DNA from: Octopus vulgaris
Taxonomy: Eukaryota
DNA length: 64,000 nucleotides
Direction: 5' to 3'
Assembly: GCA_951406725.2 (NCBI GenBank)
Contig: OX597822.1
Location: 41,602,001-41,666,000 of the forward strand
Positions 1-54,960 of the stretch are shown here, piece by piece. Positions within the stretch are counted from its first letter, which is position 1. Each line of letters begins with the position of its first letter. Under the pieces are notes generated by a model. It was given only the letters and a program-made list of their open reading frames with translations, was not told the DNA's origin and searched no databases. The position numbers were made by a program, and so were the translations under genes.

Positions 1-92
1 TGTTTTTACGTATTTTCGTATTCTTACTCATGTTATCATTAATATTTTTACGTATTTTTGTATTCTTATTCGTTCCCGTCCTTGTTTTGTAT

Positions 93-238
93 ACATTCGA
101 GGCTTTCTTCCAAGGAATCTAATGAGCTTGGCTTAGATTTTCCTTTGGGGCTGGCCAGGTCGGAGCAATCTCAAGATTAATCAGCCAAAATTGCGAAGAT
201 GATCCGGTTCTTGACTGAATATTGAAGGCTTCGAATGT
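93..238 (+). ncRNA. Second copy of the ring-topology hammerhead with mutated core
   Basis: Same helices, perfect stem I UCAAGA/UCUUGA and K-turn GC-GAA-GA. Core has GAAA changed to AAAA (187) and CUGAAGA to CUGAAUA (220). Confidence 0.55.
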
Positions 239-827
239 CCCGTCCGTGTTTTTTGTATCATCTTCTAAGTGTTTTGCGTTCTTGTCCCAGTTTATATTTT
301 TTTACATATACATATATATATAGCGGCGCCCGTACCCTTTTTGGTCTTGTATGTAAGTACATATTTTCTTTAAACTTGGTACGACTCTATAACACTGTCT
401 CTCTCTCCCTCCTCTCCTACATTTCTCTGCCTTTCACACTTTGCACTCCACTTTGATCTGTCTCTTTCTCTCTCTCTCTCTCTTCTCCTCCTCCATTGTT
501 CCTTGTTCCCCTTTTTTCTCTCTTCCTCTGTCCCTCTTTTCCTCTCTCTTCTCCTCACACTTGACTAACTTTGGACTGCTGTCCTTTTCGTGATTAGCAG
601 CCGCCGAAGCTAGACACATCTTTTTTCTCTCTTCGCCTCAAGCCATTTTTCTAATGCGCCAGCTCAAGTTCACCCGTCCTGTCGAAAAGACGCCCGTCTG
701 TGACGTCCTGTTTTTGTTATTATTATTATCATTATTGTTTTTACGTATTTTCGTATTCTTATTCATGTTATCATTATTATTTTTACGTATTTTTGTATTC
801 TTATTCATTCCCGTCCTTGTTTTGTAT

Positions 828-973
828 ACATTCGAGGCTTTCTTCCAAGGAATCTAATGCGCTTGGCTTAGATTTTCCTTTGGGGCTGGCCAGGTCGGAG
901 CAATCTCAATATTAATCAGCCGAAATTGCGAGGATGATCCGGTTCTTGACTGAAGATTGAAGGCTTCGAATGT
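828..973 (+). ncRNA. Putative hammerhead ribozyme with non-canonical ring topology and kink-turn; intact core
   Basis: CUGAAGA 950-956, GAAA 922-925, AUC site 903-905. Stem I 906-911/944-949, stem II 884-889/916-921, stem III 900-904/925-929. K-turn 897-899/930-935, helix 890-896/936-942, outer 15-bp stem 828-842/959-973. Confidence 0.65.
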
Positions 974-1122
974 CCCGTCCGTGTTTTTTGTATCGTCTTC
1001 TAAATGCTTTGCGTTCTTGTATCAGTTTGTATTTTTTTACATATACATATATATAGCGACGCCCGTACCCTTTTTGGTCTTGTATGTAAGTAAATATTTT
1101 CTTATATATATATATATATATA

Positions 1123-1290
1123 CATCCGACAAGCTTCTTTCAGTTTCCATATGCCAAATCCACTCAAGGTTTTGGTCGGCACGAGGCTATAGTAGAAGAC
1201 ACATGTCCAAGTAAGTTGCCACACAGTGGGACTGAAACATAGAGCCACGTGGTTGGAAAGCAAGCTTCTTACCACAACAGCCAGGCTTGG
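1123..1290 (-). mobile_element. tRNA-derived SINE family A, 5' half
   Basis: Reverse complement of the head seen at 5626 and 53981. Confidence 0.8.
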
Positions 1291-1832
1291 GCCTAGCAGT
1301 TTTTATTTTCCTTTTTTTTATCTACACTTTAAACGATCTCAATAAATGAAGGTTAATTTGTAAACTTTCTCAAGACTAGTGCAGTAGAATAACGTATGCT
1401 ATAAAAGGTATCCATCGGGAGAGGGATTAACGCCGAATATCGTCTTGAAATCTTTATATCTTTGTTGCTTTAAAAGACAATTCAGTACAGTTTAAATTTT
1501 GTTACATTATCTAAATGAGTGAAATTTAATACCTCAAGATTGATGCCACAGAAAAAGAATTGAGCAACAAAAAGTAGTCAAATCAGAAAGTAAAGGCCAA
1601 ATCCATCTTTATGCTATCGTATGTCAATCATTTTAGAAAAATTAATTAATTTAATTCAGCTTTTCTGAACGATCTAAATGAGAGAAATCTGATCCTAAAA
1701 ACCGACTCAAAATTGGCAAAGTAGGATAAATCTTATGGAGCAAAAAGTGATTAAATTTTTGAATGTGACAAAAATTCTGAGGCGTATTAAGCAGTGTGTG
1801 CATGTGTATGTGTGTGTGTGCGCGTGTATGTA

Positions 1833-1893
<61 letters not shown>

Positions 1894-1919
1894 ATATATA
1901 AGGATATATATATATATGG

Positions 1920-1952
<33 letters not shown>

Positions 1953-2154
1953 CATTTATATATATATATATATATACATAAATATATATGTATATGAATG
2001 TATGTAACTGGTCGAGATTTTGAAGTCACTGTCAAAATCATTCATGTTTAAGAATAATTTTGTACTCAATAAAAGTGTAGAGTAACCCATCAGATTAATA
2101 TAAAATTGTTCTTATAACTGAACATAAAAACAAACATTAAAATACATACATACA

Positions 2155-2203
<49 letters not shown>

Positions 2204-2313
2204 ACATATATTTTTTATATACTTCACATCATATATTTTATGTATATTTTGTATATCAATGTTTTTTTATAAACCTTTTTTTTAAAACTTATATCAGTTT
2301 TATCCAGCTTAAG

Positions 2314-2908
2314 GATGGATCGTCTGCTGAAACACGTTGCAGATTGTGTACCTCCAGAAAATCAATCTGGCTTTCGTGTGGGACGTGGCATTGCTGATAT
2401 GATCTTTTCAGCTAGATAGCTTCAGGAGAAGTGTATGGAACAGGGTCTGGATTTATATCAGGTTTTTGTCGATCTGACAAAAGCCTTTGATACCTTTAAT
2501 AGAAATGCACTGTGGAAAGTCCTCCAGAAACTTGGGTGCCCTACAAAGTTCCTTGCTTTGGTTAGGTCTTTTCGTGAAGACATGAAGGGTAGTGTTAATG
2601 TTAGAGGGAAACTGTAAGAGCCTATCTCAATAGAAAATGTAGTGAAACAGGGGGATATTCTGGCACCGACCCTATTTGCCATATATTTTGCGATGTTTTT
2701 TTTGTATTGCATTCAGAAACTGCACATATGGTGTTTATATCCATTATCGAACCTCTGGCAATATATTTAATATCAGGCGCTTTGCTGCAAGAACAAAGGT
2801 GTTTACCTCTATCATAAGAGACCTTTTGTATGCAGAGGATTGTGATCTAGTAGCGCACACAGAGATTGATATGCAACACATTTTGAATGCATTCTCTGGT
2901 GCTTGCAC
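2314..2908 (+). pseudogene. RTE-clade LINE reverse transcriptase fragment
   Basis: PENQSGFR, FVDLTKAFD, LQKLGCP, VKQGDILAPTLF and DLLYAEDC (YADD site), with stops and frameshifts. Confidence 0.9.
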
Positions 2909-3075
2909 CAGCTGAAACTCAATGCTATCGTTAATAGCACGAAATTGCGTCAGACCTACTGGCCGATAACTGATGAGGAACTGGGGAAATTCTGTGTCTA
3001 TTTTCCGTTCGTTTCTGCATTTGCTATATACCTTGCCATTCCGTATCTGTTTTTCATTTGTGCATTTTCTATACA
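2899..3075 (+). mobile_element. Probable PLE terminal repeat, second family, carrying the same ring-topology hammerhead
   Basis: CAAU-G-C-UAUCG-UUAA-UAGCAC-GAAA-UUGCGU...CUGG-C-CGAUA-A-CUGAUGA (2920-2976). Related fragment at about 4367-4440 on the minus strand. Confidence 0.55.
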
Positions 3076-3092
3076 TTTACACACACACACAC

Positions 3093-3138
<46 letters not shown>

Positions 3139-3162
3139 GTACACATATATATAGAAGGACAA

Positions 3163-3362
3163 AGACCTTTTCGGTCTTGAATGACCATGGGTTCGCACCT
3201 AGGACGTTCTCGTCCGAGGCACAAGTCTGGGTGAGGTTGTTTCATTGAAGACCGACAGTCGCCCATGCCAGCCTCCCATACCAGCCTCCCCTCACTACAC
3301 CTCGGATGTTGTCCAAGGGAAAGGCAAAGGCCGATACAGCTTGGCACCAGTGATGTCGCAAT
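3163..3362 (-). mobile_element. SINE family E, 3' part
   Basis: Reverse complement similar to 50065-50257. Confidence 0.75.
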
Positions 3363-3369
3363 CTTTTGA

Positions 3370-3630
3370 CAGCAGCTATGCTGGGGCACAGCCTTGACAG
3401 GTTTAGTCGAACAACGCCTGGTACTTATTCTTGCCGAACAGCTAAGTTACGTGAACATAAGCAAACCAACACCGGTTGCCAAGCAATAATGGCTGAGAAT
3501 CACCTCTCAAGGCTTTAGTCGGTCCGAGGCTATAACAGAAGACATTTGCCCAGGGTACCTCGCATGTAGAACTGAATCCATGACGACATGGTTGAGAAGC
3601 AAGTTTCCTATCACACAGCCACGCCTGTAT
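3370..3630 (-). mobile_element. SINE family A, deleted copy
   Basis: Pieces of the head and 3' half of family A. Confidence 0.7.
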
Positions 3631-4366
3631 ATAGCTATATATGTGTGTGTGCATGCGTTCGTGCGTGTGTGTGCGTGCGTGTGTGTGCGTGCGTGTGTAT
3701 GTGTGTGTGTGTGTGACTACGTATAGCTGTTGCTGTATTAGTCTAAAAGGCATGTATTTTCAAGAAAATGTAAAGACAACTTTATGGCAAAGGTGACAGC
3801 GGGGAGGTGCTGGTTGGGTAGTGGGAGCCTCAGTGATGGTAAAGGTGGTAGTAGGAGGGGAGGCGGAGATACTTTACACAAGGGAGAAAACTAATAGTAC
3901 TCTTAGTTGATGGATTTGTGCGTGTCTATATATCTGTATTAATGTTTAAGTGTGAGAGAGTATGTGTCTAGTGCGTAACGTTTGTGCATGTAGATTTTGG
4001 CCTATATGTACCAACGCAAGTGTATGTATATGTTTGCGAGTGTACAGAGACAAATACATATAGAAGCGTATAAAAGTGCATATATGTGTATATGCGTATA
4101 CATTTACATACATACATACATGACATGACATGACGGCTTCCAATAAATACATGTCCAAAGAAGTGCACACGCATTTTTATATATTTATGTATGATGCATG
4201 TGATTATATATGCGTGTCCATATTTATATACATACATACACATATATATAAATACACACTCACACACATACATATACACACATTAATATATATAATATAT
4301 AATATACTTATATATATATACTTACATATAATATATAATATAATTATATATATACTGAGTGTACAA

Positions 4367-4440
4367 CCGGACGGGAGACAAACACAGAAGGTACCTAATT
4401 CTTCATCAGTATATCAACCGTTTGGTAATACTCAGTATTA
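4367..4440 (-). repeat. Fragment of the second PLE-type repeat family (stem I strand plus CUGAUGA)
   Basis: Minus strand GGTTGATATACTGATGAAGAATTAGG...TTCTGTGT resembles 2961-2998; flanked by TA repeats. Confidence 0.55.
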
Positions 4441-4469
4441 TATATATATATATATATATTCAAAATGTG

Positions 4470-4666
4470 ACCGCGTGTGTACCGTTGGGGATATATATTT
4501 TTTTCCTCCGTCTTCCCTTCTCTGGATCTTTCCTTTTCCTTGTTTCTGCTCGAAATGATCAAACCCTCCTTCTTCCCTTCCTTCCTGAGCGTCCAATAAT
4601 ACCTATATTTGTTCCATGTTCTCAACGTTGTTGTGTTTTCTCTTTGTGTTTTCATGTTTGGATTAA

Positions 4667-4670
<4 letters not shown>
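4470..4670 (+). repeat. Degenerate PLE pseudo-LTR with the hammerhead partly deleted
   Basis: TTTCTG-CTCGAAATG...TTCCTGAGCGTCCAATAATAC parallels 56143-56216; TA-flanked. Confidence 0.5.
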
Positions 4671-4700
<30 letters not shown>

Positions 4701-4879
4701 AGTACAGAGAGAGAGAAGAGAGAGATGAGTGTTTTTTACCTTGTTCCAACAATTAACACGGAAAAAATAAATAAATAGTTACCAGGTTAGCAAAAGTCTC
4801 ACTAAGTAAAGATGTTGTAACTCCTTGTTTATAAAGGTAGAAACTTCGTGTTTACGTGGAGATATTTTTGTATTATATA

Positions 4880-5097
4880 TATAATACAAAAATATCACAA
4901 GAACGCAAAACATCCAACCAGTTAGGTGATAGAAAAAATGGACAACAAAGATCCAGATAGACGATACAAAGAAAACAAGGAGGAGGTCATTCGGAGTTTT
5001 CTTTCCTCAGTCGACTTCCAAATTATCCTTGCAATTTCGGCTGGTTATACTCGAGATTGCACCAGTCTGGCTAGCCCCAAGGAAAAACTAAGCTAAG
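4880..5097 (-). mobile_element. Diverged copy of the 1-1103 pseudo-LTR with ring hammerhead (5' truncated)
   Basis: Minus strand CCTTGGGGCTAGCCAGACTGGTGCAATCTCGAGTATAACCAGCCGAAATTGCAAGGATAATTTGGAAGTCGACTGAGGA, and shares GTTTTGCGTTCTTGT. Confidence 0.75.
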
Positions 5098-5211
5098 AAA
5101 GGAATGAGGAGAGAAAACAGATGGAGAGCAGGAACAAAACTTGCATTTTGAATAAACGGTTGCACATGGTACATTGGTACATTGACTGAAAGGAATTAAG
5201 TGGTTGGAGAC

Positions 5212-5306
<95 letters not shown>

Positions 5307-5625
5307 CCTTGGTCAGAAATGGCTCAGGTCGTGACATAGCAACATTTGGAGAATGACCCAAATCTATCTTCTTTTATCTTTAATATTTTGTTTACAGCGG
5401 CTGGACATCTTATTTCTACAACGCTTCAAACTTTCTTTTCTCTCTCTCTCATATCTGGTCTGTTGTTCTCACATTTGAGAAGTTTTGAGCAGGAACATTC
5501 CACCAGTATTCATTCATATTAATGCTGAATATGCCGTAACTTATTTCCTTTTTACCTTAAGGTTAACTATTCATTGTATTTTGGCCACAACATAACTCCT
5601 CATAGACAAAAAAATTTCTTATTAT

Positions 5626-5787
5626 TAGGCACGGAGGGCTTGTGGTAAGTAGCTTGCTACAAGGATGGTTCCGGGTTCATCCACTGCGTGGCATCTTGGG
5701 CAAGTGTCTTCTGCTATAGCCTTGGGCCGATCAATGCCTTGTGAATGGATTTGGTAGACGGAAACTGAAAGAAGTCTGTCGTATATA

Positions 5788-5840
<53 letters not shown>

Positions 5841-6057
5841 TTGTGTGTCTGTGTTTGTCCCTCTAGCATTGCTTGACAACCGATGCTGGTGTGTTTACGT
5901 CCCCGTCACTTAGCGGTTCAGCAAAAGAGACCGATAGAATAAGTACTAGGCTTACAAAGAATAAATCCCGGGGTCGATTTGCTCGACTAAAGGCGGTGCT
6001 CCAGCATGGCCGCAGTCAAATGACTGAAACATGTAAAAGAGTAAAGAAAGTAAGAGT
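5626..6057 (+). mobile_element. SINE family A, full length with internal (TA)n(TG)n
   Basis: tRNA-like A/B boxes (TGTGGTAAG...GGTTCA), conserved body, GTAAAAGA tail; many copies in window. Confidence 0.9.
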
Positions 6058-6330
6058 ATATATGTATTGTAATTTTTTGTGACAACCAGTACTTAGCACA
6101 ACAAATCTCTTACAAAGCTTTCACATTTTACTTTTGACAATCTTATTTTTAATGAAATCCTAATAGTTTTAATGAACTTTTTCATATTTTCTCAAGATTT
6201 TTCCTTGTAAACTGTTTTTAACATGTTCTTATTATTATCAAAGAATGTATATATGTATTGCAATATTTTGTGACAACCAGTACTTAACACAACAAAGCTT
6301 TTACATGTTACTTTTGACAATCTTTTTCAA
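6058..6330 (+). repeat. Local direct duplication
   Basis: ATATGTATTG(T/C)AAT.TTTTGTGACAACCAGTACTTA...TTACTTTTGACAATCTT at about 6060 and about 6252. Confidence 0.8.
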
Positions 6331-6392
6331 AAAAAGTGAAACCGGTCAAGTGAATAAACATCTTTTAAAATTGCATTTTCAAACCTTCTTTC

Positions 6393-6491
<99 letters not shown>

Positions 6492-6496
6492 ATATT

Positions 6497-6528
<32 letters not shown>

Positions 6529-6529
6529 T

Positions 6530-6695
6530 GCGACGGGCTTCTTTCAGTTTCCATCTACCAAATCCCCTCACAAGGTTTTGGTCGGCCCGAGGCTATATTA
6601 GAAGACACTTGCCCAAGGTGCCACATAGTGGGACTGAACTCGGAACTATGTGTTTGGTAAGCAAGCTACTTACCACATAGCCACTCCTGCGCCTC
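6530..6695 (-). mobile_element. SINE family A, 5' half
   Basis: Reverse complement of the family A head. Confidence 0.85.
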
Positions 6696-6762
6696 TTTAT
6701 ATACATATATATAAATATGTAATATGTGTGTGTGTATATATGCATGTATGTATGGATGTATG

Positions 6763-6793
<31 letters not shown>

Positions 6794-7335
6794 GTAATGT
6801 ATCATAGTATGTAAATAAAATATCACACCCTAATTATGTATCCATTTGGGTGGTCATCAAAATATCTATCTGTCTCTGTATGTAAGATAGGAGTCTCTGT
6901 TATATTAGATAAGGACATATGGCAGAGACAAGAAGAGTGTGGATTGTAGAAGAGAGGAGCCAATAATTTCCACAACATCATTATTCACTGTCATATGACA
7001 ATAATCACCAATACAAAGAGCAAAGAACTACAAAGAACTACAAGAGCAAAACATAACACAAGCAAGTTTACACTCCTCGTCCATCACGGTCTCCATTATC
7101 TCCAAACCGGAAACACGACAACATGGTGATAAATATGTTACATACTAAGCCACACGCATTGAAAGCCTTGACACATGCGCACTCACACACACTCACAAAC
7201 GCGCGCGCGCGCACGCACACACCCACACACGCACACATACATGCACACACACGCACGCACTCACGCACACGGACATGAGCACACCCGCACAAAAACACAT
7301 ACAGGTGCTTATAATTCGGGCGTGTGTTACGTCGT

Positions 7336-7427
<92 letters not shown>

Positions 7428-8326
7428 CATATGCATCATCGAAGCTAAAACTCTACAAAAAGTTATCTGCGAGTTTCTTGCTTCCGATTTTTGGACGATA
7501 ATGAGCATAAGAAATTGTTTAAAACAGATGGAACTAAAGCTTTGAAGGGATTAGACAAGCTTTGTTAGGTTAATTATTCTGATTGGTTTACCAAATAACG
7601 GTTGTACAAAAATATAAAAATGGGAGAAATAAATAGATGGTGTTAGGGATTATATCATCTAGAGAAGATAAGAGGAGGGAAAAGCGGAAGACGAGCCATA
7701 AATAATGAAATGAAATCTTGAAAGAGAAAGAGTAAAAGAAAGCAGTCGAATAAGGGTAAGGATTTTTACAAAAATATAGCTTTTTAAAAATTATGTCCTG
7801 TTGAATGTGAAATACAAATCTGCAGTTTAGCAAGCGGTGAACAGAAAAAAGTTTATTAAAATCTGCTTCAGGGAATGGTCAGAATGTGGCGGGGAAGAAC
7901 TTTATCTCAAAGATCAGTCGTTACGAAGAAAACATTGAAAAAGTAAATATTTAAAAGCAAGCCTGCAGGAATGTAACAACGGTTTTTTTCGTTTTGAAGC
8001 TTATAGGTCTTAGCAATAGAATGAGAATATTACAATGTAGCTTTAAATAAGAGCCATACTTGTAGAATGCAATGTGCTTTCTACACTAAACTTACACATA
8101 ATAAATTACTTTAAATATTGCCTTAAATTTAGAAACCAAAGAATATCACTTATTTAGAAAGCTAAATGAAAAGTCAGGTACATAAATTTCTCTTCCAACC
8201 ATTTGCTTATCATTATACATCTTGATAATACAAAAATTCTAGAATGTTTCTCTGTACCCGAGATATCTCAGAAATAGTATGTTTTATCTTAATTTTTTTG
8301 CATATTTATTTTCATAATTATTTTCA

Positions 8327-12959: not shown

Positions 12960-13699
12960 GCTAGAAATTAATGTAAACAGCTATGCGCAATGTTATACCA
13001 TAAAGGAAAAAACTTAATCGTCACTAGGTGTGAATAAGGGTGTTGAAGCACCTACATTGCTAGAAATACTCTTAATACTGTTGGAAGAGCGCAATGTATA
13101 CACATACTGACAAGGGAGGTAACCGCCCCATGCCCACCTCTAAGATCACCAGACTAGGCCTAATTTCGCCTATACCGTAGGCAACGTCAATGGTGATTAC
13201 TCAGACGGGGACAGTCTGCCAGCATAAGTATATTTATCATAAAAATTTATGGATGATTTAGCGAAATGCTAACGCGTATACTAAAAATATATATAAACAG
13301 CTAGGTGCAATATAATGGAGGCGGTTGTGAATATTTGTAACAAGGGGGCATCTATCACTAAACAATATTACAGCCGAATAAGAAACATATAGACCTCGGA
13401 ACTCTCTACATTCAATAATACAGTGTCCCACAATGTATTTGCAGTGCGAGTACTCTTATCAACGTTTGGGTTATTGATTGGACACTTAATAAGATACGCC
13501 ATTGATTTGAAAACCAAGAAGATACTGACCAGCTCTAATAATTTTTCACATCAACAGCGACGCAGCCCGCTTCTGGCTAAAACGAAAACAAGAAGGCAGA
13601 GGCATTTGAATATTGTATCATATTCTTTCGGCAACATCTTTTAACCAAGTTTCGAAGTGCATCCTTTGACCAAGTTTTCATACACGAGGAAGGTGCACG

Positions 13700-14790
13700 A
13701 CTCTACCGCAACGTATCATCAGATAAAAGGATGAGTGTATGTCAACAGAAGACTATGCATGGTTATGTTAGCAAATAGCTCCAGAATGACAGTAACATTG
13801 ATCATCAAAGCAGTTTATCATGAACCAACAGTCAGATTACTAACTCTCACATTGAAGAGTATGCGTTTGCAATCCTGGAATAGCAACCAAATACCTAATG
13901 CACAAAGGAGTCAAAGACGCAGGGAAAATGCCAAAATATGATACCCAATGCGGACTTTGTGAAGTTAACACCGAGGATATTACCCACATCATAAGCAGCT
14001 GTCCAAAAACTTCATCGCTTCATTATCTACCGATGAGGCATGATGTTGTAGCCAAGACACTATATAATGTGATACGTCGTAAGATTAATCCTAAGGCCAA
14101 AGAAATAGGAACCCAAAGTATGGTAGAGGCCATACTCATGATATGAATGAGTACAAGTGGAATGTCAAAGTTACAACTTCAATAAAATGTAAACATAATA
14201 AACTAAACATAGGGGTTTTCGGACAGAGAAGAGAAACTATTAACGCAGTGGAAATTAGCTGCCCGGCGGATGTCGTCAGAAAGCTAAAGATCAGTGAAAA
14301 ACAAAACACCTACGCTGAACTATTGAGAAATCTACAGCGACTCTACCCGGATTATAAGTTCATGTTTATGCCTGTAATTATTGGAGCGCTGGGATATGTA
14401 ACAAACAGGCTAAACACCAATCTTGAGGAATTAGGCTTCTCAAAACTAGAAAGAAGAAAGCGAATTAGAAGATTACAGATTCAAACTATCGCTGGAACTG
14501 TAAAAATTTGTAAAACTTTCCAGAAGTTATATATGCGCATGTCTCGACACGCAATTATATATACATGAGAAGACATGCATAAAACAAATCATACAAATCT
14601 GGACATACACTGACACCAAATACTGCACACATACGCATAAACATGCACAAATATCCTGTTGTTGTTGAAATTCCAATGAAGGGTTTTGGGATCTAAGTTA
14701 GAAACTGGTTCTTTCTCTATTGACAAGAAATCTTGAAATGAAATTGAGTAACATACAGACAGACACTTAAACCCACATACATGCTTACAT
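13700..14790 (+). pseudogene. REL-endonuclease LINE 3' portion (R4/Dong-related) ending at (CATA)n
   Basis: CCHC knuckle CGLCEVNTEDITHIISSC, RHD motif, VEISCPAD, PVIIGALG; frameshifted. Confidence 0.85.
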
Positions 14791-25608: not shown

Positions 25609-27063
25609 TATGTTTGACTTTTGCTTTATGTTTGTACAAGTTGGCTCCAAGTCTCACCCAGAGACTTCAAGAGACAACAGGTTGGAAGTTCACGTTGTTG
25701 TTATGCCTAGTGTGCCATATATTTGGGGTTTTTTTGGTGTTGTACTAGTGAATGTCTAATAAATAAATTTTTAAAAAAAAGTTTGTTTTAAACCTTGAGA
25801 TTACATAGAGAGTATTTTGCGTAGGATATGAGCAGTTCCCATGAGCACTATCTTTTGAATTTCTGCCATTTTTGGGTTTCCTGGTATCTGAGTTAGGTAG
25901 CAATCAGCCCCTTTCGCTATCATTCCCAGGGCACCTATGACAACAGGTATTGTTTTAGTCTTCAAGTTCCACATTTTGCTGATTTCTATTTCAAGATCTT
26001 TATATTTGCTCAGTTTTTGGTAGGTCTTGACAGATACGTTTATATCGATTGGGAGTCATATCAATGAGGAGGCTTGTTCTTTGTCTGAAGTCTTTCAATA
26101 TGTCTGGCGTGTTTGCATCTATCTTTCTGTCAGTTTGAATGGTGAAGTTCCAGAGGAGTGAGATGTGGTCATTTTCAAGCACTGGAGGTGGATTGTGTTC
26201 CCACCAGTTTTTTCATGGGGCAAATCCAGGTTTTTGCAAATTACCCAGTGAATATATTGTGCAGCTCTATCATGCCTGTTGAGGTACTCTGTAGGCGCTA
26301 GAAGACTGCACTTGGAGACAACATGATCAGTGGTTTCATTTTGTTGTCGACATACACGACATGTTGGGCTACTGCCGTTCTTTAATATGTTGGCCTGGTA
26401 GTTTCTTGTTGGTAGGCATTGATCTTTAGCTGCTATGATAAACCCTTCTGTTTTAGATTTTAAGCCAGAGGCCATTAGTCATTGATGGGTCAGGGCTTTG
26501 TCAATATCTGCATTATTCGCTCTCTTTGGGTATTTGCCATAGAGAGGTTTTTCTTGCCATTTATTATTCAGAATATCTAAGGCCGCAGTTTTGGCACAGG
26601 TTTTCATGCGCTTAGCTTTTTCTGTGCTTGTTTCTTGTATGACTATCTCTAATTCCGAAATTTGTTGTATTCGGAATTCACTTAGATATTTCTTTGGCTG
26701 TTTTGTTACTGAGTATGATGCTTTCTTGTTTTCATGTTTTGAGACAAGTTTTAACATCCAGTTCTCAGACTTTTTCAGGTAGGTGTCTAGGCCAATTGTA
26801 GCAATCTTCATTGTTATTGCCAGTTGTAAAAGACCACGGCCTCCCTCTTTTCTTGGCAGATAAAATCGTTCTGTATCTGCCTTAGGGTGGTGCATTCTAT
26901 GCATTGTCAACAGTTTTCGTATTTTTCTGTCAAGCTGACATATTTCAGTAATTGACCAGTTAACGATATTGAAACTGTAAGTCACGACTGGTATGGCTAA
27001 TGCATTGATCGCTTCGATCCTGATTCTCGCATTCAGCTCTGTCTTGAGTATTGCTCTCACTCT
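25609..27063 (-). mobile_element. 5'-truncated R4/Dong-like LINE
   Basis: MHHPKAD, RKEGGRGL, KPLYGKY, CRVC..ETTDHVVSKC, RHD, PDI...LLID motifs; (TAA)n on both sides; frameshifts. Confidence 0.9.
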
Positions 27064-27083
27064 TATTATCATTATTATTATTA

Positions 27084-27147
<64 letters not shown>

Positions 27148-27204
27148 CATCATTATCATCATCATTATTATCATCATCATCATCATCATCATCATTATCA
27201 TTAA

Positions 27205-27267
<63 letters not shown>

Positions 27268-27365
27268 CATCATCATCATCATCATTATTATCATCCTCAT
27301 CATCATCATGATCATCATGATCATCATGATCATCATCATCATCATTATCATCATCATCATCATCA

Positions 27366-27417
<52 letters not shown>

Positions 27418-27439
27418 CATCTTCATCATCATCATTATT

Positions 27440-27850
27440 TTTATTAAATTTTACTTCTCAGAGCTCTCTTACTTGCTCTGGTTAATTCTGTAAGAGGGGA
27501 CAGCAACTTGTTGTCAAAGGTCTCACGGGGTCTCTTCCTACGAATTATAAGACTTGATACTTAGATATTAGATATCATGGAAGATACCTAACACCAAAGT
27601 ATCAATTTCAAAATCCTCGCTGTTCCCAATATAACAGCTTTTTAGCATGCTCTACCCTCTTATCAATTCCAATTTCTCAAACTTCATTGTTAGTGCTCCG
27701 AGTCCCCCTACAACTATTGGAAAGACAGTTTCTTTCTTCATTGCCTACATTCTTGCAATTTAGTAACCTTCATTTTTCCAACCCTTTTGTCACCTACGCG
27801 TGCGTTCCCGGGTATGGCAATATCTATAATCTTAGTTTCTTTCTACCTTT
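27440..27850 (-). pseudogene. Decayed REL LINE 3' end
   Basis: Minus strand PIVVGDS.. and KAVILGTARIL; next to (TAA)n. Confidence 0.65.
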
Positions 27851-27883
27851 TATCCACTACAATTATCATTATCACTATTATTA

Positions 27884-28927
<1,044 letters not shown>

Positions 28928-28928
28928 A

Positions 28929-29679
<751 letters not shown>

Positions 29680-29685
<6 letters not shown>

Positions 29686-30058
29686 GTGTATATATGGTCA
29701 TGGGTTCATTCCCACTGCGCGGCACCTTGAGCAAGTGTCATCAACTATAAACCCCGGCTCGACCAAGCCTCATGAGTGGATCTGGTGGAGAGAAACTGAA
29801 AGAAACCCGTCGTATATACATGTATGCGTGTATGTGCGTGTCTTTGCGTTTGTGTTTATTATCCACAACTTGACAACTGGTATTAGTTTGTTTATGTCCC
29901 CATAATTCGGCAGTTTAGCAAAACAAACCGAAAGAATAAGGAGCAGGCTTTAAAAAAAATAAGTACTGGGGTCGATGAATTCAACTAAACTCTTCAAGGC
30001 GGTGCCCCAGCATGGTCGCTACCCAACAGCTGAAACAAATGATAAGAATGATAAGAAA
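29680..30058 (+). mobile_element. SINE family A
   Basis: Similar to 5626-6057. Confidence 0.8.
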
Positions 30059-42594: not shown

Positions 42595-42964
42595 CATATA
42601 CACTTATGTCAAACGGGATTGGCCACAACAGGAAAAATAAGAAAAAAAGCACATACAAAGGACGTGTATATGCTCATCAGTTATCAGCCAAAAATCATCA
42701 CATTTTCGGCACCTTCCAATAAATAATATTGTTAATTTTGACGGTGTCAGGGACATAAGCTCTTACAGAACAAATAAGCGGACATGATAGACGAACACCA
42801 GCAATAAAGAATAAAACGAGTTATGAGGAAAACAGGAAAAATATATTTAAGACAAAAGAAACAAATATGCGAGGACAGTAACAAATATATATATAGCAAA
42901 CGACACAGAGACATTTGTATACATAAAAAAGCCTTTTGGCTATGCGATAATATATATATATATA

Positions 42965-45634: not shown

Positions 45635-45802
45635 TATATCTAAGAGATGAGGAATTTTGTACATTATTTACATTTGACGGATATTTGTCCTCATCTTGTT
45701 TGTTGTTAACACAACATTTTGGCTGATATACCCTCCAGCTTTCATCAGGCATCTTGGGGAAATTTCGAACCTGGATTCTCATTCCTAAGGTATTTTTCGA
45801 TG
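45635..45802 (-). repeat. PLE-type repeat with decayed minimal hammerhead (about 45706-45752)
   Basis: CUGAUGA-AAGCUGG-AGGGUAUA-UCAGCC-AAAA-UG-UU-GUGU; the changes fit CpG decay of CGAAACG. Confidence 0.55.
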
Positions 45803-45852: not shown

Positions 45853-47920
45853 TAGTTTTATTTTTTATAGCGTGCTTTCACTTCACTACCGAGCGCAGCT
45901 CTGTGTGCCTTGGGTGTGTGCTGTGATTTGTTGTGATGCTCTGATGGTTATTGTATGGAAAGTGTTCTGCGTAGGATGTGTGCAGTGCCTAGAAGTGCAA
46001 TTGTCTGTATGTCATATGTGTTTGTAAGTCCTGGTGTTTTTGTTATGTATTTGTCTGAATATTTTTTTATCATGCCTAATGCACCTACTATGATAGGAAT
46101 TGTTTCTGTTTTTAGATTCCACATTCTGGTTACCTCCATTTCCAGGTCTTTGTATTTTGAAAGTTTCTCCATTTCTTTTAGAGACACGTTGTCATCTGCC
46201 GGTATTGATACATCAATTAGAAAGCATTTTTTTCTTCATGATCTCTGACAACTATATCTGGTCTGTTGGCCTTAATTCTCTATCTGTGTGTATCGGCATA
46301 TCCCAAAGTATGGTTGCTTTCTCGTTTTCTGTGATCTTTTCTGGTGTGTGTCTATACCATCTTTTTTCTGTTGTTATTCCATAATGTTGGCATAGCTTCC
46401 AGTGTATGTAGGTTCCAACTCTGTCATGTCTGTGAATATATTCCTTCTTAGCCAGGACTGGGCAGCCAGAAATAATATGATTTATTGTTTCTTGTCCATC
46501 TCCACATATTCTGTAGTTACTTGATATATTTCTTTTCATTACATGTTTTTGGTAATTTCTGGTGGGGAGGCTTTGGTCTTGTGCTGCAATTAAAAATCCC
46601 TCTGTCTCTGCTTTGAGTCCTGAGCTTCTCAACCATTGCTGGGATTTTTGTTTTGCATTTAGTTTAGTCCAGTATTTACCGTGAAGGGGTTTTTCTTGCC
46701 ATCGTTTTATCATGGTTCTTTGCTGTTCTAGTTTTAGTTTGGATTTCATTTGTTTTATAGCTTTTGTTGTTTCTTCATCTTCTTCTTCTTCTTCTTTATA
46801 TTTGTTAGGTGGTATGATTTCTTGTTTGTATTTGTCAGCTTCCTTAAATACTGAGAACAGTTTTTTGTTTTGCTCTTGTTTTGCCGCTATTTGTATCAGT
46901 TTTCCTTCCTTCTGAAGTAGATATTTTTGCAGTCCTATGGTGGTTATTTTATAGTAGTTTTCCAGCTGTATAAGACCTCTACCACCTTCTATACGTTGTA
47001 TATATAGTCTTTCTATGTCAGATTTTGGGTGATGCATCCTAGACCCTGTCATTATTTTTCTTGTTTTCCTATCTATTTTGGTCAGTTCATTTAGTGTCCA
47101 GTTAAGGATATTGTAGCTGTAACTTATAACTGGGACAGCTAAAGTGTTAATACCTATTATCTTGTTTTTAGCGTTGAGCTCTGTTTTTAGTATTGATTTA
47201 ACTCGTCTATAATATTCTTTTTTTATTTTCTCTTTCATTTGTGTGTGTTGTGTCTTATCTAGTTCATGGATTCCTAAGTATTTGTAAGTTTGGCTTTGGT
47301 CTAATTCTTTTATTTCATTGGTTTTATCTAGTGTGATGTTGCTACTCTTAACTAGTTTTCCTCTTTTCATGGTTACTTTGGCGCATTTTTCTAATCCAAA
47401 TTTCATATCTATTTCTTTGGTAAATCCATGAACTGTCTTTAATAGTGTTTCCAGCTGTTTGTCATTTGCAGCGTATAGTTTTAGGTCATCCATATATAAA
47501 AGGTGGCTGATCGTTTTGCCGTAACATTTATATCCGCATCCAGTCCTATTTAGCATATCAGATAGAGGTGACAGTGCCAAGCAGAAAAGGAGAGGAGAGA
47601 GCGTGTCTCCCTGGAATATTCCTCTTCTAATGGGGATGGCTTTGGTTTTCATGAGTCCCTCTTTTGCTTGGAGCTGTAGCACTGTTTGCCATTTATTCAT
47701 AGAGTACCCAATGAATTTTATAATTGTTGGTGCTACTTTGTTAATGGCTAGTGTTTCGAGGATCCATGTGTGGGGGATGCTATCAAACGCCTTTTTGTAG
47801 TCGATCCAGGCCATACTGAGGCCTTTCTTCTTTCTGTGGCTGTCTTCAGTTATGGCTTTATTGATCATTAGTTGATCTTTACAGCCGTATGAGCCTTTGC
47901 GGCATCCTTTCTGCTCTTCT

Positions 47921-54841: not shown

Positions 54842-54960
54842 AGCAGCAAGTATGGGAGACAAGTCCTGACATGTTTCAGTCGTCAGGCATCCTCAGTTAA
54901 GCAGCAAGTATGGGAGACAAGTCCTGACATGTTTCAGTCGTCAGACATCCTCAGTTAAGC
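54842..54960 (-). repeat. 58-bp tandem duplication, each unit with a minimal hammerhead-like motif
   Basis: Minus strand CUGAGGA-UGUC-UGAC-GACU-GAAA-CAUG-UC-AGGAC, twice (one substitution). Confidence 0.6.

Follow-up and report, generated by a model that had tools for sequence, protein, structure and literature searches.

Hammerhead ribozymes of type SGC, as set out in the accessible part of Eckert et al. 2023 (PMC10085705), carry a full core in the block order S-G-C, a short linker between stem I and stem II, typically of 3 nt, and an extra 'I' helix that joins the far sides of these two stems, and they are described there from metatranscriptomes only. That text assumes CUGAnGA and the adjacent stem II strand to be inseparable beyond one or two bases, and the available part of Perreault 2011 holds single-base core insertions only. 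The type I hammerheads of PLE pLTRs and non-LTR retrozymes (PMC8557442; bioRxiv 10.64898/2026.07.22.740005; PMC11167929), as far as the consulted portions of these sources extend, lie near the 3' end of a Penelope-like unit and are accompanied by partial tandems, inverted 5' copies and short non-coding derivatives. Craig et al. 2021 (PMC8557442), in the portion available to us, name tandem and inverted layouts as hallmarks of Penelope-like elements and describe the Naiads as being without canonical hammerheads, with flagged core motifs ('HHR_core', 'HHR_half_core') that fit no descriptor.

Here we follow up a hammerhead-like stretch within 64,000 nt of Octopus vulgaris DNA, hereafter the window. 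We consider it highly probable that this stretch, truncated at its 5' end and decayed, is one copy of a non-coding dispersed repeat, intact copies of which are predicted to form an SGC-order hammerhead opened between A9 and 10.1, likely self-cutting and spread by a Penelope-like, probably Naiad, retrotransposon. With more reserve, we lean towards the wider proposal that the layout is a new topology beyond the six block permutations, which joins SGC order and an opened core to a five-helix junction and a kink-turn brace, and that it would be the missing Naiad ribozyme from ctenophores to cephalopods, would cleave in vivo and would set the 5' end of the template, full-length copies arising from religated circles. 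If this is true, stem II would not have to adjoin CUGAnGA, as has been assumed, non-circular permutations would reach into animal genomes, and there would be a reason why Naiads seemed to have no hammerheads.

The window copy and the repeat behind it

A sequence-only reading of the window had placed the segments of a hammerhead between 2899 and 2976, and a check of the sequence found each of them there. The left end of the motif abuts a fragment that, from its motifs, we take to be of RTE type. This fragment is 86-93% identical to 11 other genomic copies and matches Pfam RVT_1 at E 2e-4 over 2420-2614, under the curated cut-off, and its homology stops at 2908. Because the copy of the repeat, which we call family B, is 5'-truncated at that position and fused to the RTE fragment, the GUGCU at 2899-2903 that appeared to serve as stem II partner is RTE coding sequence. 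The earlier suspicion that this overlap is coincidental was right: position 2899 is G in the window and A in 11 of 11 other RTE copies, and GUGCU stands 4 nt from the d strand as against 1 nt for strand IIa in the family. That GUGCU/AGCAC, which could form five pairs, is a selected compensatory stem II of a functional copy is hardly credible to us. GUGCU belongs to the RTE sequence, the A in IIb of the window copy recurs in five other B copies with no matching change in IIa, and the copy combines G17 and a broken first stem I pair with the absence of both P0a and the hairpin.

Compared with its family, the window copy is missing the native IIa, the hairpin and the 5' strand of the outer stem; at H17 it has G where the family has A, the first pair of stem I is broken (C for U, giving C.A), and the GA of the kink is AA. 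The predicted cut would follow position 2924, where the G had already been named as not cleavable, correctly as it turns out. A stem III of 7 bp, also proposed at the outset, did not hold, as it has 4-5 bp in the family and the proposed outer pairs are not kept; family stem I has 6 bp (2925-2930/2964-2969). Judged by its letters, the window copy is a dead fossil that would not cleave. Its value lies in pointing to an old family that gives independent helix sequences.

Table 1. Features of the window that bear on the predicted fold; positions count from the first letter of the window, strand in brackets.
Feature	Position (strand)	Remarks
Family A copy, same predicted fold	828..973 (+)	one stem I mismatch at 910; tandem partner 93-238, 735 nt upstream
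Decayed RTE-type non-LTR reverse-transcriptase fragment (presumed type)	2297..2908 (+)	fused to the family B repeat, outside the motif
GUGCU	2899-2903 (+)	looks like the stem II partner; part of the RTE coding sequence that by chance replaces strand IIa of the family, lost here
Family B copy, 5'-truncated	2908..3077 (+)	-17 (predicted cut as reference) through to the tail; ends at a (CA)n run
d strand (CCAG 2908-2911) and non-bulged kink strand	2908..2917 (+)	family GA at 2916-2917 is AA here
Block S	2920..2930 (+)	stem III 5' strand 2920-2923; H17 is G2924 (A in the family); stem I 5' strand 2925-2930
Linker and block G	2931..2948 (+)	4-nt linker 2931-2934; stem II 3' strand 2935-2940; GAAA 2941-2944; stem III 3' strand
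Bulge, GA and d'	2950..2962 (+)	3-nt bulge, GA 2953-2954 and d' (CUGG 2959-2962) of the predicted kink-turn
Stem I 3' strand and core heptamer	2964..2976 (+)	2964-2969; CUGAUGA 2970-2976
Outer stem P0, 3' strand	2977..2989 (+)	P0 partner and hairpin deleted in the window copy
Second family B remnant	4349..4425 (-)	placed at 4367-4440 by the earlier reading; d' region to tail; without GAAA and block S
Family C copy, same predicted fold	4974..5097 (-)	5'-truncated within the hairpin

From 2908 on, the sequence belongs to a dispersed repeat with 44 matches (from the best 40 of 310 candidates scored), whose unit is about 780 nt long and non-coding. Its consensus was built from the 17 copies with upstream homology out of 26 assigned to B. 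The majority order begins with the outer stem strand, a hairpin, IIa, d, GA, IIIa, H17, Ia and a 4-nt linker, and continues with IIb, GAAA, IIIb, a 3-nt bulge, GA, d', Ib, the core heptamer and the outer stem partner. Majority pairing is kept across these 17 copies in 80/85 cells of stem I, 60/84 of stem II and 73/85 of stem III; the d helix, with 77/118 cells paired, is weaker than in families A, C, D and E. The majority core is intact (CUGAnGA, GAAA, A15.1-U16.1, NUH), and H17 is A in 12 copies, U in 2, C in 2 and G in 1, so that 16/17 are cleavable. As read from these copies, family B is old and its pairing in part decayed.

The consensus thereby bears on what had been predicted for it before it existed. 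An NUH site was foreseen and is present as AUA, with A, U or C at H17 in all but one copy, and the foreseen outer closing stem is found in the majority. GUGCUA had been expected directly 5' of CCAG; its place and structure stand, as GUGCC lies directly 5' of d and pairs with GGCAC before GAAA, whereas its letters do not, and no GUGCUA subfamily was found among the 79 rows of the family B anchor search. Loss of the stem II partner or of NUH from the consensus had been named as grounds for giving up the fold, and the consensus has both. The second fragment, on the minus strand, is indeed a remnant of family B (72% over 67 nt, E 0.003), yet one in which GAAA and the cleavage block are absent.

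How specific is this pattern? A pairing descriptor for the strand order, with H17 left free, matched the window at this site alone and found 0 matches in 60 locally shuffled windows, a weak test because the descriptor was shaped on the observation itself. The pattern of order and spacing, which contains no pairing rule, gave 7,025 matches genome-wide against 50 for the reversed control. An Rfam scan of window positions 1-8000 gave 79 matches up to E 10, none of them to a hammerhead family. Nested folding, a method that cannot show pseudoknots, did no better on the window copy than on shuffles (z -0.56) and recovered only P0, the hairpin and stem II in another B copy (L002; z -1.51).

Several B copies (L336, L343, L361, L386-L392) form a subfamily, B2, with a different linker and, in most copies, a 5-bp stem III; five of them carry the same uncompensated G-to-A change in IIb as the window copy. 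The bodies of families A and B open with a short similar word followed by a long CT-rich tract (window 375-395 and the body of L002; BLAST E 0.5), possibly a common promoter or start signal, and show no clear similarity to each other beyond CT-rich sequence.

A predicted opened core in six repeat families

Pattern searches brought out families A, C, D and E and a Naiad type with the same spacing as B. All six follow the strand order P0a - hairpin - IIa - d - IIIa/NUH/Ia - linker - IIb/GAAA/IIIb - bulge/GA - d' - Ib/CUGAnGA - P0b. This order does not match those of types I, II and III (CGS, GSC and SCG without pseudoknots), but is S-G-C. It resembles type SGC, as presented in the accessible part of PMC10085705, in block order and full core, in the shortness of the linker between stems I and II (4 nt here and 1 nt in the Naiad type) and in having an extra helix, here the d helix, between the far sides of these stems. 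It differs in that IIa lies 5' of the whole ribozyme while CUGAnGA runs into the outer stem P0, in that a predicted kink-turn connects stem III to the extra helix, and in its occurrence in an animal genome in thousands of copies. From the type I hammerheads of PLE pLTRs and non-LTR retrozymes, as the consulted parts of the sources present them, it is set apart by the non-circular order and the opened core, and type I descriptors miss it. The openly accessible literature that we searched contained no description of this layout.

The core is opened between A9 and 10.1 by the outer stem and the hairpin. No stem II strand stands directly 3' of CUGAnGA; its partner lies upstream, and the 3' bases form P0. 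The layout would thus work like an SGC hammerhead yet fails one of its defining features, and with IIa 5' of the ribozyme and CUGAnGA entering the outer stem, the block held to be unbreakable in the accessible text of PMC10085705 is split by two helices. In families B, C, D and E strand IIa is reached through P0 and the hairpin with few or no unpaired bases; P0 of the Naiad type is short, about 3 bp. P0 and the hairpin may hold IIa beside A9 and so replace the covalent link, while the kinked III-d arm would draw stem I and stem II towards each other at their far ends, in the manner of the 'I' helix of type SGC. Were this an ordinary type-SGC hammerhead, IIa would come immediately after CUGAnGA; the block order agrees with that, and family A does offer a 4-bp partner 5 nt after the core. 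We regard this reading as very improbable. In the five families other than A, the bases that follow the core form no pairs with IIb; in all of these but the Naiad type they are paired instead with the upstream strand of P0, and IIb pairs and covaries with the upstream IIa. For B this reading is already refuted by sequence.

Support for the opened core comes from comparison between the families. Majority strands of stems I-III from the six families form 86 of 90 cognate Watson-Crick pairs, a score reached by 1 of 720 label permutations (mean 51.7). Families A and C are related, as are B, D and E, which leaves about three independent groups, and with three deep groups no rank better than 1/6 can be attained; this rank was reached. 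An alignment of A, C, D and E, comprising 29 hand-picked full-length copies with neither B nor the Naiad type and from families that also yielded the structure, has 91.9% of 665 cells paired as against 21-44% in slid controls, and in 16 of its 23 pairs both partners have changed. By the two measures based on counts of pairs or types, this alignment was no better than the shuffle control (62/500 and 319/500). The d/d' helix is paired in 90% of cells in these four families, with 4 of 7 pairs changed on both sides. Kink-turns are characterised by a 3-nt bulge followed by tandem G.A and A.G pairs. The majority sequences of all six families have a bulge and tandem GA of this kind, which the window copy has lost, and the joint between stem III and d is predicted on this basis to fit the kink-turn consensus.

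The suggestion that a structural class is at work here, rather than the accident of one repeat, is supported by these six families and their covarying helices; a failure of the helices to covary had been the other ground for abandoning it, and compensatory changes between families were found. Less exact was the statement that family B is unrelated in sequence to the repeat at 828-973: stems I and II do differ, whereas the linker, the spacing and the inner pairs of stem III are common to both. Altogether we regard family B, as predicted from its sequence, as a non-autonomous Penelope-like repeat whose hammerhead, with a split core in SGC order, is likely to cut itself.

The family A tandem of the window (93-238 and 828-973) has a period of 735 nt, and its first copy is mutated in both core motifs; the insertion has its start at a (TA)n run shortly before the window (L172). 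Around 42640-42750 on the minus strand (GAAA at 42707) lies a decayed remnant of the same order that belongs to another family, with a D-like stem I and a different stem II strand.

Edges of truncated copies and the predicted cut

Shortened copies across the genome begin at or just after the predicted cut, which suggests that the RNA likely cut itself. For family A, an anchor at +57 had 4,130 matches, and edges were taken from the first 100 listed, 60 of which were full-length by eye and 40 were mapped. After removal of 9 full or internally deleted copies, 1 ambiguous copy, 1 at the anchor edge and 1 duplicate, 28 edges remained among the matches listed: 4 in -54..-1, 15 in +1..+13, 7 in +14..+30 and 2 in +31..+56. 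The contrast of 15 edges in +1..+13 with 1 in -13..-1, likewise among the matches listed, has a sign-test p of 2.6e-4, for a range picked after seeing the data. Family A stubs in 3-kb loci (L210, L214, L218, L220 and L228) stand alone and are about 150 nt long; one further stub (L226) has another copy 900 nt away.

For family B the anchor was set at +13 and is blind to edges beyond that position; it gave 79 matches against 5 in the control, and a tighter downstream anchor gave 6 matches only. Of the 71 matches examined, curation by hand removed 9 that were not B, 33 full or internally deleted copies and 1 duplicate, and 2 whose downstream homology was short were left uncounted. There were 23 edges in -4..+13 and 3 in -60..-5, the window copy being one of the latter. 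At -1..+3, several of the B edges lie at inversions and have no (TA)n at the junction (L334, L340, L353, L010). Among 19 Naiad-type loci one, with two copies, starts at +1 and four start upstream; the anchor used there is blind to +4..+13.

Could the fold be real but not catalytic? It might be an element that binds protein or stalls reverse transcriptase, for example through the kink-turn, so that the edges would result from stalling or from (TA)n microhomology at the linker. Many edges do fall at +8..+13, beside the AT-rich linker, where they abut (TA)n and such microhomology could help; the core is interrupted where the accessible text of Eckert 2023 reports no insertion above 1-2 nt, and the small Naiad-type sample has no pile-up. 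This alternative nevertheless seems to us clearly unlikely. Both core motifs, the A15.1-U16.1 pair and A, C or U at H17 are kept across families with different helices, the edges stop sharply at +1, AT-rich words upstream draw few edges, and inversion junctions without (TA)n fall at -1..+3 as well.

If the RNA is indeed self-cutting, the transcript would fold into the opened core and be cut after H17, which would leave a 5' end at +1. Reverse transcription would start in the downstream tail and run off at +1 on the cut template, and the loss of a few bases on joining would give stubs of 150-180 nt. On uncut, multimeric or religated circular RNA the site would be passed, giving longer copies that comprise the unit and part of a second lap. 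For a lizard Penelope element, the accessible part of PMC11167929 likewise has reverse transcription start in the tail downstream; the hammerhead of that element relied on protein, could be dispensed with for insertion in vitro and gave rise to no read ends, and cleavage may therefore not be essential. The pile-up of edges would then be a genomic footprint of cleavage and bear on what hammerheads do in Penelope-like retrotransposition.

A probable link to Naiads, and other Penelope-like elements

Family B occurs in partial tandems (L002, L019) and as inverted 5' copies (L006, L010, L340), and its copies usually end at microsatellites. Since partial tandems and inverted 5' copies match the hallmarks given in the accessible part of PMC8557442, its layout is Penelope-like. 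Motif scans found neither a reverse transcriptase nor a GIY-YIG endonuclease ORF in the B unit, and protein-motif scans of the examined loci found no ORF attached to family A, B or C. From its sequence, family B would be non-autonomous at best.

The Naiads, in the accessible portion of Craig et al. 2021 (PMC8557442), share with the present repeats a (TA)n target and, by eye, the same layout at the 3' ends of 10 consensuses of File S5, with different helices. These are Naiad_Bfor, whose stem I has only 2 bp, three from Acropora, Naiad_Obim, Naiad_Ovul and four others, from a file of 54 Naiads whose core words were mostly covered. They differ in that the paper, in the part available, proposes no fold, in that the nematode Naiad entries seen have ordinary-order cores (several arthropod entries are not clear) and in that family B has no ORF link. 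Three exact words of families A and B are absent from the supplement of Craig 2021. A 19-nt word of the Naiad-type motif has 741 matches genome-wide and 0 in the control, and in two loci (L329, L331) the motif lies downstream of a decayed reverse-transcriptase C-terminus whose DNA matches the octopus Naiad consensus; this fragment has no Pfam match, and the Naiad N-terminus (GIY-YIG, CxC) was not recovered. As motif scans found no ORF adjoining any B copy, the Naiad link of family B rests on analogy, by which family B is probably driven by Naiad.

That B was mobilised by another element, be it a Neptune-type Penelope, Hero or RTE, is a possibility that we hold to be rather doubtful. It would fit with the lack of a Naiad ORF beside B and with a Neptune-like endonuclease end upstream of one B copy (L084), but a (TA)n run lies between them there, and the Neptune-like end seems, by eye, to carry an ordinary-order core of its own. 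Moreover, Hero-like 3' ends have the motif in 0 of 4 cases, the RTE in the window is interrupted mid-ORF, and B has the tandem and inverted layout.

Fragments with C-terminal GIY-YIG or a reverse transcriptase with PKIH and YIDD lie beside B, C and A copies (L084:2954-3271 minus, L132 and L231, respectively); from these motifs we take them to be Neptune-like Penelope elements. As partners of the repeats these reverse-transcriptase and endonuclease fragments were considered and judged to be separate insertions. The window also contains several decayed fragments of non-LTR elements with a restriction-like endonuclease (Hero-like), at about 13200-14600 (+), 45900-47700 (-) and 25800-29700 (-). 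After a Hero-like 3' end and a (TAA)n run, at about 45730-45770 on the minus strand, lies a hammerhead-like core of ordinary order whose GAAA is mutated and whose heptamer is followed by a hairpin, probably a pLTR piece of another Penelope-like element, and a compact hammerhead-like core, likewise of ordinary order and with a 3-bp stem II, is found at about 54930-54960 on the minus strand.
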